From an uncultured Gemmatimonadales bacterium (GTDB lineage: Bacteria; Gemmatimonadota; Gemmatimonadetes; Gemmatimonadales; GWC2-71-9): a stretch of DNA of 64,000 nt. This document shows, piece after piece, positions 1,533 through 11,536 of this stretch. The stretch spans positions 448,001 to 512,000 of the forward strand of contig CAWJIM010000019.1 of NCBI GenBank assembly GCA_963842945.1, given 5' to 3'. The notes beneath the pieces are model-generated. The model was not told where the DNA came from. It searched no databases and saw only the letters and a list, made by a program, of their open reading frames with translations. The first letter of the stretch is position 1. Each line of letters opens with the position of its first letter. A program made the translations under genes and the position numbers.

Positions 1533-3105
1533 GCGCGCAGGAACACGCGTCGGCCCATCGGATTCTGGGCCCGGCTCGAGCGCTACTGGCGTCGGCTTTC
1601 CTATACCGGCTCCATCATCGGTATCGCCATCATCATCACCTGGCTCGGCGTCTGGCAGATTCGCCGGGACGACACCGTCGGCCTGCTGCTCACCTCGGTG
1701 GCTACGCTGCTGACGCTGGTCACCTTCCGTCACCTGGGCGAGCTCTCGGAGGGGCAGAAGACCTCGCTCCGCACCGCCCTGGCGCACTCCGACCGGCGCA
1801 ACCGCGAGCTGGATCACCTCCGGCACCTGGCCGGGACTCTGCTGGCCGGCACCGACCTCGGACGGGCTGGTGCGCGAGGTGGCCCAGTCCGCGGCCGAGC
1901 TGCTGGAGGCTGAAAGCGGTGCGGTGACGCTGATGGTGGAGGAGGGCCGCTTCCTTAAAGTGAAGGCGGCAACCGGTGCGCTCGAGGCGGCCACCGGCAT
2001 GCTGGTTCCGATAGATGGCTCGCTGCTCGGCTGGGCGGTGACTCAGGATTCCGCACTGGTGTCGGACGACATGGATTCCGATCCCAGGAACTACCAGCCG
2101 GCCTTCACGATTCCCCTCAAGTCGGCCGCCATCGTTCCGCTGCGGTCCGCCGGCTTCGTGGTGGGCACGGTGAGCGTGTACAACCGGCGCGACCGGCAGC
2201 CCTTCAGCCAGCATGACGTTCAGCTGCTGCAGATTCTGGGCGACCAGGTTGTGGTGGGCCTCGACCGGGCATCGGTACTGGCCGAGAGCCGGCGCAACGA
2301 GACCGCCCTGCGGAACAAGAACCAGGAGCTCCAGCAGGCCACCCAGCTCAAGAGCGAGTTCCTGGCCAACATGTCGCACGAGCTCAGGACCCCGCTCAAC
2401 GCGATCATCGGCTTCTCCGACCTGCTGCTCGAGGGCGGTGGGGGCGATATCTCACCGCAGCAGCGCGAGTTCATCGAGGCCGTGCTGCGCAACGGGAAGC
2501 ATCTCCTCTCGCTGATCAACAGCGTGCTCGATCTCTCCAAGGTCGAGGCCGGCCGGATGTCGCTCACGCTGGCGGTGACGGATCTGCGGGAGGCAATCAC
2601 CGGGGCGGTGACCGACACCGCGAGCCTTCGCACCGCGAAACAGCAGGAGTGCGTGCTGAAGCTCGATCCGGCTTCGTTAACGGTCGTCGCCGACCGAGTC
2701 AGAATTCGGCAGATTCTCTACAACCTCCTTTCCAACGCGTCGAAGTTCACCGCCGAGGGTGGCAAGATCTGCCTGGCGGCAGTGCGGACCCGCGCGCCGC
2801 TCCGGCAGCCGGCAGACCGGGCGGGCGACAGGGGCCGTTTGGTCCCCCAGGACGTCGTGTGGATCTCGGTGACAGACGAAGGTGTGGGAATCAAGCGGGA
2901 GGATATGCCGAAGCTGTTTCAGGAATTCAGTCAGGTGGACAGCTCGGCCAGCCGGCGGGCACAGGGAACCGGACTGGGCCTGGCCCTCTGCAAAAAGTTC
3001 GTGGAGCTGCACGGCGGCATCATCGGAGTGGATTCGGTCTACGGCAAGGGCGCCGCGTTCTGGTTTCTGCTCCCGGCCGATGGGCCGATGCGCCGCACAG
3101 CTTGA
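1529..3105 (+). CDS. Membrane sensor histidine kinase (TM-GAF-HisKA-HATPase); frameshifts near 1605 and 1865
   Basis: [20 protein letters not shown]-box, [11 protein letters not shown]-box, DEGVGI and GTGLGL G-boxes; N-terminal TM and GAF parts lie in adjacent frames. Confidence 0.9.
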
Positions 3106-3136
3106 ATCGGAGGGCCAAGGCGCTACCCTTAAGGGA

Positions 3137-3496
3137 ATGGCAGCCCTTCGCTCGATAATGAGCGTGGCCGGTTTTCTTACGGCCCTTCTGGCCGGTGTCC
3201 ATCTGGCCCCAAGCCCAGCGGCTGTCCCGCTCCCCAACGTTGCATCGAAGCCCGCTCCCGCAGCTGTCGTCAGTACTCCCCAGGAATCCCTCCCGGCACC
3301 GGTTCACGACGAGGCCACCTGCGCCTTCTGCCAGGCGGCGGCATTCGCTCCCCATGCGGGCCAACCGGTGGGCACCCTCGCCCTGGACACCGGTGACGAG
3401 CAGCGGCTCCAGCCGGCCCACGACGACTCACCCGCCTTTTCCGCGTCGGCCAGTCCGGCGCGCTCCCGAGCTCCCCCCATTCTCCGATCGGTCTGA
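3137..3496 (+). CDS. DUF2946-like leader protein with CxxC and C-terminal RAPP motif (CruR/CutF-like)
   Basis: Hydrophobic N-terminus, HDEATCAFC, C-terminal RSRAPPILRSV; directly upstream of a metal-uptake operon. Confidence 0.8.
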   Translation: MAALRSIMSVAGFLTALLAGVHLAPSPAAVPLPNVASKPAPAAVVSTPQESLPAPVHDEATCAFCQAAAFAPHAGQPVGTLALDTGDEQRLQPAHDDSPAFSASASPARSRAPPILRSV

Positions 3497-3540
3497 GCCA
3501 ACGCGTCTCTAGCGACGCGTAACTCTTACAATCGGAGGAT
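3479..3540 (+). promoter_or_regulatory. Anti-SD/SD stem with nested hairpin upstream of the 3543 gene
   Basis: ATTCTCCGAT (3479-3488) pairs with ATCGGAGGAT (3531-3540; 9 Watson-Crick + 1 G-U); inner hairpin ACGCGTC-N6-GACGCGT (3501-3520). Confidence 0.7.
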
Positions 3541-3542
3541 TC

Positions 3543-4943
3543 ATGCACCGCCGTGCTCGCACGGCCATTCTGCTCGCCGGATTCTGGCTGGGAGCAGCAT
3601 CCAACGTTCAAAGCCAGGTCAGCACTCGGGTCGATTCGCTGAACCGAGCGCTATCGACCTTGTCCGCGCGCATCGATTCGCTCGAAGCCGGCCTCTGTCC
3701 GGCAGCGGCCGGACCCGCGGTTCCTGGCCCCTCGGGAGACCGGGTGACCGACACTCTCGCCGCCCAGGTCCAGTCACTGGAGCGCAGACTGGCCGCCCTC
3801 CGACAGGTGCGCTGCGCGCCGGGCGCGGCTCCCGGCCGGCACCGACCCAGACATCCGGATTCGACTGACGATCTCGCGGCGATCCGGGCGGCCGCCGCGC
3901 AGGCCGCGGGACAGGCCGGCGGCGGAGGTCAAACCGATTCCACGAAGCCGAAGTCGGAGACTGCACCATCCCAGCAAAGCCCTCGGGGAGCCAACCTCCT
4001 CAACCCCGAGATCAGCGCCACGGGTGATATCCGGCTGGTGGCCCGGGAGGGCCAGCAGGAGAACACCTTCGTGCCCCGCGAGTTCGAGTTTGCCTTTCAG
4101 TCGGCCCTCGATCCGTACTCCAGTACCAAGATCTTCATGACCTTTGAGGATGAAGAAGTGGGGATCGAGGAGGGCTACATCTACTGGACGGGACTGCCGG
4201 GCCGGCTTCGAGTCGATCTCGGGAAATATCGCCAGCAGGTGGGCGATCTGAACCGATGGCATCTGCATGCATTGCCCGAGACCGAGTATCCGCTGGTGTA
4301 TCAGCGGTACTTCGGAGAAGAAGGTCTGTCCGGGGTCGGTCTCTCGCTTTACACCACGCTGCCGTTCTCCCTGGCCGGTGCCACCCACGAGGTCTGGTTG
4401 CAGGGCACCACCGTCAACAGCGATCCGATGCTGAGCGGAGGCCACCCGTTGGTGCTGCTGGGACGGCTGCAGAACTTCTGGCAGCTCAGCCGGAGCACCT
4501 ATGCCCAGCTGGGAGTGACCGGACTCGGCGGCAACCACGACGATGCCGACCTCCGCAGCCGGGTGGCAGGACTCGACTTCCGGCTGACCTATCGCCCGCC
4601 GCAGTCCGGCACCCGGCGCGACGTCACCTTCCGTGCCGAAGGGTACCGCTTCCACGCCGATGAGATTGGAGTCACCACCAATCGGTATGGCGCGTTTCTG
4701 GATCTGCAGGCACGAACCAGCCAACGCTGGGTCTTCGGCGCCCGCTACGATTATGTGGAGGCGCCGCGGGGCCCGGATGATACCGAATGGCGAATTACTC
4801 CGAACCTCACCTGGTGGCAGAGTGAGTTCGTTTTTCTCCGGCTGGAAGGCGAGCACCGGCACAGCGATCTGGCGGGGACCCAAAACCTGTTGACGTTCCA
4901 GGCGGTGTGGGCCATGGGCCCGCACAAGCATGAGACGTATTGA
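3543..4943 (+). CDS. Outer-membrane beta-barrel protein associated with metal uptake
   Basis: Signal peptide, coiled-coil N-region, LNPEIS motif, WHLH, amphipathic beta strands, C-terminal GPHKHETY; GGAGG SD. Confidence 0.75.
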   Translation: MHRRARTAILLAGFWLGAASNVQSQVSTRVDSLNRALSTLSARIDSLEAGLCPAAAGPAVPGPSGDRVTDTLAAQVQSLERRLAALRQVRCAPGAAPGRHRPRHPDSTDDLAAIRAAAAQAAGQAGGGGQTDSTKPKSETAPSQQSPRGANLLNPEISATGDIRLVAREGQQENTFVPREFEFAFQSALDPYSSTKIFMTFEDEEVGIEEGYIYWTGLPGRLRVDLGKYRQQVGDLNRWHLHALPETEYPLVYQRYFGEEGLSGVGLSLYTTLPFSLAGATHEVWLQGTTVNSDPMLSGGHPLVLLGRLQNFWQLSRSTYAQLGVTGLGGNHDDADLRSRVAGLDFRLTYRPPQSGTRRDVTFRAEGYRFHADEIGVTTNRYGAFLDLQARTSQRWVFGARYDYVEAPRGPDDTEWRITPNLTWWQSEFVFLRLEGEHRHSDLAGTQNLLTFQAVWAMGPHKHETY

Positions 4944-4944
4944 A

Positions 4945-4988
4945 GCAGCGGGGCAGCGGGGCGGCGGGGCAGCGGGGCGGCAGGGCAG
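4945..4988 (+). repeat. Tandem octamer array GC(A/G)GC(G/A)GG x~5.5, containing four GGGG tracts
   Basis: GCAGCGGG GCAGCGGG GCGGCGGG GCAGCGGG GCGGCAGG GCAG immediately after the stop codon at 4943. Confidence 0.9.
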
Positions 4989-5043
4989 TCACTGAAGGCG
5001 GAGACGAAGCGATCTACTTGAGACCCATTGAAGGAATACACAT

Positions 5044-6143
5044 ATGACGTTCACATCACTGTTCATTCTCGCGGGTCTCCTGTGGAGCTGCCCCGCTGCC
5101 GAGCGGCCCCGCTGCCTCGCTTGAAAGCCCCGCTGCCGAGCGACCCCGCTGTCGCGCCTCCTAAGCTCGTCACCAGCTTGACGACCTACGGCGCCATTGC
5201 GCGAGAGATCGTCGGCGACCGGGGCACGGTGACCTCCATAGCCCAGGGCGACGAGGATCCCCACTTCGTGCAACCGAAGCCCAGCTTCGTGGCGATCCTC
5301 CGCGACGCCGATCTGTTTGTGACCACCGGTATGGATCTCGAGCTCTGGGTGCCGGCGCTGCTGGACCGGGCCGGTAACCGAAAGATCATGGACGGCGGTC
5401 CCGGATATGTAGCAGCATTTCGCGGAATCGATCTGATGGAAGTGCCCACCTCGCTCAGCCGAGCCCAGGGCGACATCCACGTCGATGGCAACCCGCACAT
5501 TCACACCGATCCCGTAAATGGGATCATCATCGCGCGGAACATCCTGGCGGGCCTCCAGCGCGTCTCCCCCGAGAACGGCTCGTACTACGCCGGCCGGGAA
5601 CAGGACTTCGAGAAGCGGGTGCTGGAAGCCACGATCGGCGCCCCACTGGTCGGCATCCTGACTCCCGCGACCGCCTTCGATCTCCTGAAATCGAACAAGC
5701 TCCTCGATTTCCTGGCGCAGCAGAAGTATCAGGGCAAGCCGCTCACTGCGCAGCTCGCAGGCTGGCTCAAGCAGGCCGAGGTTTTCCGGGGCAAGCAGAT
5801 GGCCTGCTACCACAAGGAGTGGGCCTATTTCAGCCGGCGGTATGACATCGAGTGCGTCACCTACATCGAGGCAAAGCCGGGTATCCCGCCGACACCCGGC
5901 CACGTCCAGGAAGTCATTCAGCTGATGCGGGACCGAAAGATTCCCGTGCTCTTCTCCTCGAATTACTTCGACCGTAAGCAGATCGAGCAGGTGGCCGAGC
6001 GCACCGGCGCCAAGGCGGTGATCGTGCCGGAAAACACCCAGGGGGCACCCGGGGTGAATACCTACTTCGACCTGATGAACACCTGGGTCAGTAATCTGGC
6101 TCTCGGGTTCAAGGACGTAGCGCTCACCGCCGGAGCCCGATAA
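5044..6143 (+). CDS. Metal (Zn/Mn-type) ABC substrate-binding protein, ZnuA/TroA family; frameshift near 5100
   Basis: ATG5044 after AAGGA gives the signal peptide MTFTSLFILAGLLWS; EDPHFV, GDIHVDGNPHIHTDP and YH motifs in the 5028..6143 frame. Confidence 0.9.
5087..5152 (-). repeat. Degenerate inverted octamer array (CCCGCTGC) inside the SBP N-terminal coding region
   Basis: CCCGCTGC at 5092, 5108, 5129 and CCCGCTGT at 5145, interleaved with degenerate units; reverse complement of 4945-4988. Confidence 0.8.
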
Positions 6144-7150
6144 TGGACCTGAGCCTCTTTCTTCCGCCGCTGGTGGCGTGCCTGGTCATCGTAGCCATTC
6201 ACTCGTATCTCGGGCTGCACGTGATCGCCCGCGAGGTGATTTTCGTCGACCTCTCTCTGGCCCAGATGGCGGCGCTGGGCTCGGCCGTCGCCATTCTGGC
6301 CGGGAGCCAGCCCGATTCGTCAACCGCATTCATTTATGCTCTGGGATTCACCACCCTGGGCGCGGCGACGTTCGCCCTGACCCGCACCTCGGAAAAAGGT
6401 GCCGTGCCCCAGGAGGCGATCATCGGGATCGTGTACGTCATGGCATCCGCCGCCGCTATTCTGGTAGCCGACCGCACTCCCCGCGGGGGCGAGGCCATCA
6501 AAGACATCCTGGTAGGCAGCCTTCTCTGGGTCACCTGGCCCACGATTCTCCGTCTGGCTGGCATTTACGCGGTGGTGGGACTGGTGCACTGGGCGCTGCG
6601 GCGGCGGTTTCTCACCATTTCGTTCAGCCCGGAAACGGCGCTGGCTCTCGGGTGGAAAATCCGCTGGTGGGATTTTCTGTTCTACCTCACCTTCGGTATC
6701 GTGATCACCTTCTCGGTCCCGATCGCGGGAGTGCTGCTGGTGTTCTCCTTCCTGGTGGTCCCTGCAGCCGTCGCCTTTCAGTTCACCCGGCGCCAGGGAA
6801 CCCTGGCCCTGATCTCGTGGCTGAGCGGGGCGCTGGCCTCTGCGCTCGGGCTTTGGGTGTCTTTTCACTACGATCTGCCGACCGGTCCGGTGGTCGTGTG
6901 CATGTTCGGCCTGGTGCTTCTGGGAGCCTATCTGGCGCGGAGGGTGGCTGGGACTCAGGCACCGGCACTGGCCCCGACGTCACGCAGAGAGGGCCACCCC
7001 CAGCCTCTAACTCACGCTGGGCCTCAGATCACGGTCTTTCGGTCGGAGCGCCAGCGCGACACGGTGGGATGCGGCAGCATTGCGCCGCGGCGAAGCAGTT
7101 CGAAGTGCGCCGCGATGATGTCGGCCAGACGCTGGGCAATGAGCACGTGA
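6143..7150 (+). CDS. Metal ABC transporter permease (ZnuB/ABC-3 family); true stop may be near 7010
   Basis: Multiple TM helices, IFVDLSLAQMAALG, GVLLVFSFLVVPA, YDLPTGP; the tail after ~6985 overlaps the opposite-strand gene and looks like frameshift read-through. Confidence 0.9.
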   Translation: MDLSLFLPPLVACLVIVAIHSYLGLHVIAREVIFVDLSLAQMAALGSAVAILAGSQPDSSTAFIYALGFTTLGAATFALTRTSEKGAVPQEAIIGIVYVMASAAAILVADRTPRGGEAIKDILVGSLLWVTWPTILRLAGIYAVVGLVHWALRRRFLTISFSPETALALGWKIRWWDFLFYLTFGIVITFSVPIAGVLLVFSFLVVPAAVAFQFTRRQGTLALISWLSGALASALGLWVSFHYDLPTGPVVVCMFGLVLLGAYLARRVAGTQAPALAPTSRREGHPQPLTHAGPQITVFRSERQRDTVGCGSIAPRRSSSKCAAMMSARRWAMST

Positions 7151-8822: not shown

Positions 8823-11151
8823 ATGACGACCGCGGCCCCGACTACCTGTACCATTCCCGTTTCGGGCATGCACTGCGCCGGCTGCAGCAGCCGAGTGCAG
8901 CAGGCGCTGGAGAGCACGCCGGGCGTGAGCGCCGCGAATGTGAATCTGATGACCAATTCGGCGACCGTGGAGTTCGATCCTTCAGCGGTCACTCCGCAAC
9001 GTCTGGTGGAGGCAATCAGGGAGACGGGCTACGGCGCCGAGCTCCCGGCTGACCGGGTCAGCACTACCGGTGCTGGTCGACCAGCAGGACGCCGCCCGGG
9101 CGGCGGAGATCCGGGAGCTGCGGCAGAAGTTCACTGTCAGCCTCGCCGCCGCCATCCTCGCCATGCTGCTGAGCCTGCCACTGGCGAGCGCCGACCCGGG
9201 CACCACGCGGGATCCCCTGATGCGAGTCATGATGCCGCTCTCCCGGATGTTCGAGCGCATCGTGCCTGGTGTTGCCGATGTGTCGGCAGACGTCTGGCGA
9301 TATCTGCTGCTTGCGGTGACGATCCCGGTGATCGGCTGGGCAGGACGGCATTTCTACAGCCGGGCGTGGGCCGCCGCGCGGCACCGCATGGCCGACATGA
9401 ATACCCTGATCGCGCTCGGCACCGGCGCAGCCTTCCTGTTCAGCCTGGCCATGACACTGGCGGACGATTGGTTTTCCGCCCGCGGGATCAGGCCGCAGGT
9501 GTATTACGAGCCGGTCGTCTGGATCATCGCTCTGATTCTGCTGGGCAATCTGCTGGAGGCGCGGGCGAAGAATCGGACCTGGGAGGCCCTTCGCCGGCTG
9601 ATCGCGCTGCGCCCGCCTACCGCGCGAGTGCTTAGAGGCGGAGAGGAGCAGACCGTCTCCCTCGACGATGTGCGAGTCGGCGATCGCCTGCTGGTACGCC
9701 CGGGCGAGACGATCCCCGCGGATGGAGTGATTCTGGACGGGTCCAGCCACGTCGACGAGTCGATGCTGACCGGCGAGCCGGAGCCGGTTCGGAAAGTCGT
9801 TGGCGACTCGGTCGTCGGCGCCACGCTGAATCGGAACGGCGCGCTGCAGCTCAGGGTCACCCGCACCGGTGAGGAGACGGTCCTCGCCCGGATCATCCGG
9901 CTGGTGCGGGAGGCCCAGGGCTCCAAACCGCCGATACAACGTCTCGCCGATCGCGTCTCCGCTGTTTTTGTTCCCGTGGTTCTCGTCCTGGCGACGCTCA
10001 CCTTCGGAGTCTGGCTGCTGTTTGGGCCGGAGCCGTCCTACCTGCACGCCCTGGTGGCTGCGGTCACGGTGCTCATTATCGCGTGTCCTTGCGCCATGGG
10101 ACTCGCCGTGCCCACGGCCGTGATGGTGGCGACCGGTAGGGGAGCCGAGCTCGGTGTACTGATTCGGGGAGGGGAGGCCCTGGAGCGCACCGGTGACGTG
10201 GATGTGGTGGTGCTGGACAAGACCGGAACCATCACCGAAGGCCGGCCCAGGGTTGGCTCGGTGATCGCAGCGTCCGAGTCCGGCCTGAATGCCGACCGGG
10301 TTCTGCAGCTGGCGGCTTCGGTGGAGCGATTCAGTGAGCATCCGCTGGGCGAGTCAATCGTTGCCGAGGCCGAACGTCGGACGATTCCGCTGCTCCCGGT
10401 TACGGCCTTCGAGAGCCGAACGGGCCGGGGAGTGGAGGGCGTGGTGGAGGGCCACCGCGTCGCCTTGGGGAATGTGGCCCTGATGCGCGAGGCAAAGGTG
10501 GACCCGGCAGCGCTCGACCGGCAGATCGGCAGACCGGATGAGACTCGGGTATACCTCGCGGTCGATGGCCGGGTGGCGGGGCTCATCACCGTGTCAGACC
10601 CGGTCCGATCGAGTAGCGCCGAAGCGGTTCGCCGGCTCAAGGAGCTGGATCTCGATCTGCTCCTGCTCAGCGGGGACGATCAACGGACAACCACCAGCGT
10701 AGCGCAAATGGTTGGGATCGACCACGTCGTGGCCGAGGTGCTGCCGTCGGGGAAGCTGCAAGAAATCCGGCGGCTGCAGCGGGAGGGCAAGTCCGTGGCG
10801 ATGGTGGGAGATGGACTGAACGACGCGCCGGCGCTGGCCCAGGCAGACATCGGGATTGCGATGGGCGGCGGGACCAGCGTGGCGGTTGAAGCCGCTACGG
10901 TCACCCTGATGCGGGGTGATCTCATGGGTGTGGTGGACGGGATCGCGCTCTCCCGCAGGACCATGAAGATCATTCGGCAGAATCTCTTCTGGGCCTTCAT
11001 CTACAACCTGATCGGCATTCCGATAGCCGCCGGTGTGCTGTATCCCCGATTCGGTCTGCTGCTCAGTCCGGCCATGGCGGCGGCGGCCATGGCGGCCAGC
11101 TCGGTGAGTGTGGTGTCCAACAGTCTCCGGCTCAGGAATTACCAGCGTTAA
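8823..11151 (+). CDS. copA: Copper-translocating P1B-type ATPase; frameshift near 9065
   Basis: HMA domain [32 protein letters not shown] and MxxSS copper-specific TM motifs. Confidence 0.93.
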
Positions 11152-11174
11152 CCATTCACCGCTCACCGTTCACG
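11149..11174 (+). repeat. Short degenerate heptamer repeat (TCACCGY)
   Basis: TAACCAT TCACCGC TCACCGT TCACG starting at the copA stop codon. Confidence 0.55.
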
Positions 11175-11191
11175 CAGTGACGAGGTTCAGC

Positions 11192-11536
11192 ATGGCAACA
11201 GAAACCAAGACCCCCTGCGCCTGTGGGGCCAGAACGGGCGACGGCTCCCCGGGCAGCACGGTAGATCCGGAGATCAAACACGCGATCGGTACCCGGCTAC
11301 GCCGGATCGAAGGGCAGGTCCGAGGCCTCCAGAAGATGGTCGAGGAGGAGCGTTACTGCGCCGACGTGCTTATGCAGCTCTCATCGGTGCAGGAAGCTCT
11401 TCGCGGAGTAGGACGGGGACTGCTTCAGAACCACCTGAAGCACTGTGTGACCGAGGTGCTCAGGAGTACTGATCAGGAGCAGGTGGATGCGGCAGTAGAG
11501 GAGCTGATGGAGCTGATGTATAGGAACGCGCGGTAA
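11192..11536 (+). CDS. csoR: Copper-sensing transcriptional repressor
   Basis: RLRRIEGQVRGLQKMVEEERYC...HLKHC with the Cys-His-Cys ligand set; follows copA. Confidence 0.93.
   Translation: MATETKTPCACGARTGDGSPGSTVDPEIKHAIGTRLRRIEGQVRGLQKMVEEERYCADVLMQLSSVQEALRGVGRGLLQNHLKHCVTEVLRSTDQEQVDAAVEELMELMYRNAR

Follow-up and report, generated by a model that had tools for sequence, protein, structure and literature searches.

What does a short reading frame do when it sits directly ahead of a metal-transporter operon and ends in a ribosome-arrest motif, and to which metal would it answer? The question is raised by a locus of an uncultured Gemmatimonadales bacterium, which we studied in a window of 64,000 nucleotides, meaning the whole stretch of DNA analyzed (Table 1). 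The reading that we favor, at somewhat better than even chance, is that of a zinc-sensing RAPP leader, on in starvation, that gates an uptake operon through a hairpin masking the SD sequence. We are highly confident of arrest plus hairpin, a shade less so of metal control of the leader and, to the same degree, of an operon that is on in starvation; that the metal is zinc, given the other parts, is fairly probable. The stall is likely by analogy with CruR, CutF, ApdA, and ApdP, and polarity and metal are likely from the nature of the targets. Specifically, the ribosome would stall at RAPP by default when metal is scarce, and the stalled ribosome would cover the anti-SD arm and free the porin ribosome-binding site, allowing translation of porin, binding protein, and permease. 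Metal, most likely zinc, on the His/Cys cluster would, with or without export, pull on the chain and release the stall, after which the hairpin would close and the operon would turn off. The sensor lies about 48 residues from the P site, which, assuming a tunnel of the usual length, we take to be just outside the tunnel.

Table 1. Features of the leader and the operon that it precedes, by position in the window
Feature	Position	Strand	Basis
Predicted promoter: -35-like TTGAAT (3102-3107), -10-like TACCCT (3124-3129)	3102..3129	+	Sequence, TAnnnT conservation
Leader ORF, CruR/CutF-like candidate arrest peptide	3137..3496	+	119 aa
Hydrophobic signal- or anchor-like segment, residues 10-21	3164..3199	+	Mean Kyte-Doolittle 2.2
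Putative metal sensor H57-x4-C62-x2-C65	3305..3331	+	C62 invariance, purifying selection
RAPP arrest motif R111-A-P-P114	3467..3478	+	Predicted stall, Pro113 (3473-3475) in P site
Anti-SD arm within the leader's last codons	3479..3488	+	Pairing prediction, covariation
Inner 7-bp hairpin	3501..3520	+	Predicted in both states
SD arm of porin gene, GGAGG at 3534-3538	3531..3540	+	Pairing prediction, covariation
Outer-membrane porin, homologue of Vibrio Omr	3543..4943	+	16 predicted strands, N-terminal helices, no TonB plug
ZnuA-family binding protein, three His sites	5028..6143	+	PF01297
ZnuB-like ABC-3 permease	6143..7150	+	PF00950

The anatomy of the leader is as an earlier note on this DNA described it. 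The frame, the residues H57-D-E-A-T-C62-A-F-C65, and a RAPP motif whose R111 lies 46 codons past C65 are all present, and a five-residue tail follows the motif. The signal-like N-terminus claimed in the same note is compatible with the hydrophobic stretch and with a helix predicted at residues 2-18, with cleavage and export being putative. AlphaFold modeled the leader without a folded domain (pTM 0.22). In a six-frame translation of the whole genome, 537 R[AG]PP motifs lay near a stop and only two had a CxxC 38-55 residues upstream, the second being an off-frame reading within the porin gene; the genome yielded no second leader of the same family. Among 25 relatives, the cysteine block differed at 63 synonymous and 7 nonsynonymous codons, which indicates that the block is maintained as protein.

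Family assignment was less straightforward. The leader itself had zero Pfam or NCBIfam matches and did not reach the cut-off of PF11162 (DUF2946). Membership in this family, to which the leaders cited in the earlier note belong, is remote at best: of 60 orthologues, 18 match the profile weakly (E up to 1, best 8e-5). The nearest ESM Atlas clusters (score 0.97) were mostly from Gemmatimonadota, one of them carrying DUF2946 on 11% of its members. Relatives came from records titled Gemmatimonadales or Gemmatimonadota, and annotations across homologue searches and cluster look-ups were almost all "hypothetical protein." In its proposed mode of action the leader is like CruR and CutF, and by the Pfam test it is not a DUF2946 protein.

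Conservation of the leader could be traced across the phylum. Porin homologues occurred in 119 of 301 genomes, giving 197 loci with a porin match, 177 of them with at least 200 nt upstream and 162 after removal of duplicates. R[AG]PP stood no more than 15 residues from a stop at 143 of these 162 distinct loci, a few of the 143 being remnants or wrong-frame picks, and in 1 of 149 control stretches; together with the purifying selection, this led us to reject a chance ORF. A cysteine lay 43-50 residues ahead of the arginine in 134 of the 143 leaders, and across 60 aligned leaders the only invariant positions were C62 and the R, P, and P of the motif. Because the loci are kin, such counts are not independent and overstate the number of separate observations. 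Among the 19 loci missing R[AG]PP, 5 end in RSPP, reportedly partly permissive for arrest, with the cysteine in register, and 6 hold only a decayed remnant. In one clade (L022, L023, L025, L031, L099, L103, and L104) the leader N-terminus is gone and a remnant of the RAPP region is conserved some 150 nt ahead of the porin start; a divergent gene beside most of these remnants presumably encodes a repressor of the BlaI/CopY type. At L187, an opposite-strand leader of the same family lies upstream of the porin gene and is directed away from it.

Within the 116 distinct leaders, the sensor looked different from what the window alone would suggest. The CxxC proposed as sensor is present in the window leader, but it occurs in only 56 leaders, and His-x3-5-Cys occurs in 107, so that the family-wide sensor is better described as His/Cys. 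In all 116 sensors, His and Cys together number three or more; the mean for Met is 0.16 per sensor. This composition bears on whether the leader is instead a secretion or envelope monitor of the SecM, ApdA, and ApdP kind, in which export pulling alone would free the stall and the His and Cys residues would have a different role. Such a monitor would fit the hydrophobic N-terminus found in 111 of the 116 leaders and an outer-membrane protein as the first target at nearly all loci examined. Yet it would not account for a Cys that never varies and keeps a fixed spacing to RAPP, or for the His and Cys found in every sensor, and we consider it very unlikely. To our knowledge, ApdA, ApdP, and SecM have no metal motif. 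According to the accessible text of PMC10951233, these peptides have a RAPP-type arrest motif and a signal-like N-terminus, as the window leader does. Their role, however, is to monitor the export of proteins, and the genes behind them are sec or yidC, whereas the window leader heads metal transporters.

The closest parallels come from two leaders that respond to copper. CruR (Bp2923) of Bordetella pertussis, a member of DUF2946/PF11162, is described with copper neighbors in the accessible parts of PMC9426467; the text parts and three supplements of that paper that were searched contained no mention of zinc, ZnuA, or a Gemmatimonad. Its arrest has been demonstrated, with RAPP arrest occurring free of ligand in vitro and the P site on the first Pro (PMC12992588, available parts), and the stall register that we give for the window leader is by analogy with that toeprint. 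Like CruR, the window leader is the first gene of a metal-homeostasis operon, here as there an import operon, and combines a putative export-like N-terminus, a CxxC, about 45 intervening residues, and RAPP near the C-terminus; the polarity is predicted to be the same. The targets differ, however, in that the window leader heads zinc-type genes for a porin, a binding protein, and a permease, and the CxxC is not kept in the window orthologues.

CutF of Rhodobacter capsulatus, with a signal, a Cys motif, and a Pro-rich end, resembles the window leader, whose signal is putative; the stall of CutF melts a hairpin over the next SD (PMC9973294, available parts). In the literature at hand it is the one leader whose SD-masking hairpin has been tested, and its polarity is opposite to the one that we favor; stalling data are given in the accessible part of a follow-up (bioRxiv 10.1101/2025.02.05.636593). 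The window leader likewise has fewer than 150 residues, a PP no more than 15 residues from the C-terminus, and a same-strand neighbor within 1000 nt, at a gap of 46 nt. It also has, by prediction and covariation, a hairpin over the downstream SD that a stalled ribosome would open. It differs from CutF, which, in the same available parts, is a copper sensor with a CxxxC that stalls more when metal is present and whose target is a detoxifying oxidase. The paper adds that CutF-like leaders are not all copper specific, naming nickel and cobalt, and links His-only leaders to Ni/Co genes.

The RNA that follows the motif is consistent with such a hairpin. As had been claimed, the 10 nt after RAPP are complementary to the downstream SD region, and a 7-bp hairpin is nested in the loop. 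The two arms form nine Watson-Crick pairs and one G-U, and a 67-nt stretch folds with an MFE of -28.8 kcal/mol (z -5.38). A chance hairpin was rejected, as none of 200 shuffles was equally stable, and the significance was lost when the 5' arm was left out of the fold (z -0.7 and -0.9). In the alignment, inner hairpins were alike in shape and varied in sequence. Covariation of the anti-SD and SD arms in orthologues, named in the earlier note as a check, was found in a sample of 27 close loci with 22 distinct arm pairs, in which only the inner pairs were tested. At the four inner stem positions free of SD constraint, 69 of 88 cells pair, compared with 46 +/- 4 after partner swaps, and 0 of 5000 swaps reached 69. 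Since the MAFFT alignment put the SD column wrong in some rows, pairs were counted by a script anchored on RAPP and GGAG, an anchoring that favors the four core pairs. One stem position changed on both sides (T-A in 10, A-T in 6, G-C in 2), although with about four stem variants the compensatory events are few. Over 55 distant loci, the mean for a locus's own duplex was -10.9 versus -9.5 +/- 0.3 after swapping.

The idea that a stalled ribosome covers the anti-SD and frees the SD agrees with the modeled geometry. When the first Pro was placed in the P site, opening the window ribosome-binding site was predicted to cost 2.9 rather than 11.6 kcal/mol (4.5 rather than 11.0 in a longer stretch), a drop from about 11 to 3-4.5 kcal/mol, and a ribosome placed 5 or 10 codons earlier did not ease opening. 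Across the 110 loci that passed our filters (a clear SD and a gap of no more than 200 nt), the median opening cost fell from 11.5 to 6.4 with the stall footprint; it fell by at least 3 kcal/mol in 71 loci, as opposed to 14 with a footprint 15 nt shorter. Predicted SD unpairing under the modeled stall, however, rose only to 0.28-0.60 in the window, and only to a median of about 0.33 over loci. The register of the pairing is only partly conserved: the SD partner lies where expected in 54 of the 110 loci, and in the other half it lies elsewhere.

It could be argued that the leader, like CruR, acts mainly by Rho-dependent termination of transcription and that the hairpin is secondary. Positions 3400-3478 are indeed C-rich (40 C, 21 G), like the reported cruR rut region, but this bias is explained by Pro, Ala, and Ser codons. 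Furthermore, Rho terminates over 162 nt in cruR, whereas only 46 nt separate the genes in the window, where SD sequestration is predicted, and the SD pairing is under selection. Rho as the main output seems to us slightly less credible even than the export monitor, and Rho termination and SD masking can coexist.

If arrest plus hairpin is the switch, its metal has to be sought in the operon that it would control. The porin was modeled with a pLDDT of 88.8, and its best fold matches are porins. TonB-dependent receptors are 22-stranded barrels with a plug domain, and that label, which had been given to Omr, was rejected for a plugless protein with 16 predicted strands. In the binding protein, each of the three site motifs carries His, a feature kept across loci; we take this three-His site to fit ZnuA, AdcA, and TroA better than PsaA or MntC. 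It is the only ZnuA-family gene found in the 87%-complete genome, but NCBIfam matches were all below cut-off, as were those to the AztC, ZnuA, and ZnuB models. Its signal-peptide ORF (5044-5130, ATG 5044) is out of frame with the body, and relatives are intact; the break is probably a sequencing error near GC repeats.

The cassette pairs a binding protein and permease without an ATPase gene, in the window (3543-7150), at most loci, and also in Vibrio and Sulfurovum. No ATPase gene was found in the operon or after the permease, nor one of the cognate type in the 87%-complete genome, whose best ATPase match lies within a B12-type operon, judged from its ORFs. A Walker A motif occurred in the stretch covered at 11 of 139 permease loci, all distant (27-30% porin identity), and a close relative of that ATPase was present in 2 of 61 family genomes. 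With the window porin as query no plasmid record was matched; a distant porin relative did match one.

A distant porin relative also led to a locus in Vibrio campbellii with three genes homologous to those of the window (porin, 99.8%, E 1.6e-29; binding protein, E 1e-32; permease ZnuB2, 32% identity, E 2e-25). According to the accessible part of PMC9817125, V. campbellii has an omr-znuA2-znuB2 cluster, and omr-znuA2-znuB2 of V. parahaemolyticus is induced 283- to 1034-fold in zinc deficiency; our homology was computed with V. campbellii proteins, the V. parahaemolyticus cassette being equated by gene names. Gene number, gene order, and the lack of an ATPase are as in the window.

This homology weighs against the view that the metal sensed by the same stall-and-hairpin switch is copper, or else Ni, Co, Mn, or Fe. 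The sensor of the window leader is thin, with one His and two Cys, and its CxxC matches the copper motif of CruR, down to the 45 intervening residues. The best PDB match of the binding protein is YfeA, and the His-only CutF-like leaders tied to Ni/Co genes also speak for other metals. Moreover, a CopA-type ATPase, split into an HMA ORF (8823) and a body (9070-11151), is followed by a CsoR/RicR-type repressor (8823-11536 in all). However, an opposite-strand ORF sets copA off from the cassette, an unsystematic look found no copA-cassette tie elsewhere, and, across the leaders, CxxC is kept in fewer than half and Met is almost absent. The suspicion in the earlier note that the metal might not be copper is strengthened by the cassette homology and by the ZnuD-like and ZneCBA-like targets of related leaders, all of which point to zinc, and we judge another metal unlikely.

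Those related leaders came from a profile that matched in 241 of 301 genomes (a tally including G157, which is unpublished). Having been built from porin-adjacent leaders, the profile may miss leaders of copper targets. We drew 40 stretches away from porin matches from the best 150 matches listed. Of the 41 leaders in these stretches, every one ended in RAPP or RGPP. Genes of 640-840 codons follow 26 of these leaders, and the best matches of the 19 genes scanned, all below cut-off, were ZnuD for 9, a haem receptor for 4, none for 6, and a copper receptor for 0. Another 13 leaders precede TolC-sized genes (4 of 5 scanned match the TolC model, below cut-off), with an adaptor-like ORF next in 12 of these loci. 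The one RND protein tested was closest to ZneA (E 4.7e-237, versus 7e-163 for CusA) and the one adaptor tested was closest to ZneB. In the genome of the window, neither the ZneA-like nor the ZnuD-like targets were found to have a close relative.

In one genus, leaders that are 68% identical precede different targets: a porin cassette in G047 and, in G036, an RND pump of the heavy-metal kind. The two loci have the same promoter and spacer, and the target signal peptides begin alike. These loci, L253 and L255, present a swap of cassettes, porin or ZneCBA-like pump, behind one leader module, and in several genomes both cassette types adjoin the same neighbor genes. The two leaders could have opposite polarities. 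Such a pair would suit a CutF-type polarity, in which metal prolongs the stall and the operon is on with metal present, and so would the short intergenic region, the SD-masking hairpin, and the putative signal that the window leader has in common with CutF. Against this stand the zinc-deficiency induction of the homologous Vibrio cassette, the ligand-free arrest of CruR at RAPP in vitro, and the pump itself, which is ZneA-like and of a type raised by starvation in Cupriavidus, where ZneCBA and ZniCBA rise on EDTA treatment (PMC11647595, accessible parts). Given that rise, all three target types fit metal starvation, and a CutF-type polarity appears quite unlikely.

With zinc starvation as the favored signal, the regulator expected from Vibrio is Zur, to which control of the same three genes is attributed there. 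The V. campbellii cassette carries two exact TGTTATnnnATAACA Zur-type palindromes and no upstream RAPP ORF, whereas the window has the leader and no such box. The best window match to the Vibrio-type box had 5 mismatches, and 136 loci held none at one mismatch or fewer, which is weak evidence, as the phylum's own box may differ. One Fur-family protein scored over cut-off in the genome; since Fur and PerR models score above Zur, all below cut-off, a Zur may or may not be encoded. The cassette recurs in Sulfurovum, where it lies behind a His-rich CxxC ORF ending in HAPP (L262, 2800-3156), with a longer spacing of about 70 residues between CxxC and HAPP.

A candidate counterpart within Vibrio is ZrgD (DUF2607), the first gene of the zrg zinc-uptake operon, which is likewise His-rich and RAPP-ending. 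That operon is also under Zur, unlike the reading proposed for the window leader. The available part of PMC12992588 (supplement file 8) shows DUF2607 proteins as His-rich, single-Cys, RAPP-ending ORFs before DUF2796 (ZrgA) genes, with the Cys about 45 residues before the R in the one printed row counted; the accessible text has no passage on ZrgD as an arrest peptide. From this arrangement, ZrgD itself may be a zinc-type arrest leader. The DUF2607 profile matched 0 of 60 leaders and nothing on the V. campbellii record examined.

Transcription of the leader appears to begin close to its start codon. The leader ATG lies only 31 nt past the upstream gene; the TTGAAT hexamer overlaps the stop codon of that gene, a kinase, and TACCCT lies 7 nt ahead of the ATG. 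TAnnnT occurs 5-8 nt ahead of the ATG in 60 of 102 loci, as compared with 1 at 12-15 nt and 1 at 18-21 nt. A -10-like hexamer so near the ATG suggests that the mRNA is likely leaderless, although a consensus promoter scan returned nothing at the leader. In two RNA runs 5-6% of the words were present; their contigs leave 3044-3763 uncovered and have no bearing on expression.

If our reading is true, the locus encodes a zinc-sensing ribosome-arrest peptide, a kind that we did not find described; literature searches, with most subscription journals outside their coverage, returned no paper on a zinc-sensing arrest leader. The metal-sensing arrest leaders with tests in the literature available to us are for copper only, two cases with opposite polarity and different outputs. 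Pairings of such leaders with zinc-type targets are already in print as data in a 2025 source table and go undiscussed in the accessible text. The window locus unites the CruR motif with the CutF hairpin ahead of a homologue of a Vibrio zinc-starvation operon, and offers a direct test of whether a nascent chain senses zinc and replaces a transcriptional repressor. Natural variants for metal choice and polarity are at hand: CxxC versus His-rich single-Cys sensors, importer versus pump, RSPP ends, and decayed leaders. In Gemmatimonadota, a CruR/CutF-type arrest leader likely stands in for Zur at this cassette. More broadly, and as a possibility that we rate somewhat short of even, nascent-peptide sensors, rather than Zur, may run the zinc-starvation response of the phylum. 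A single family of His/Cys RAPP leaders, leaderless and equipped with an SD-masking hairpin, would then act as a portable zinc switch that has moved among ZnuD-like receptors, a ZneCBA-like pump, and the cassette of porin, binding protein, and permease; in Vibrio, ZrgD would be its likely counterpart.
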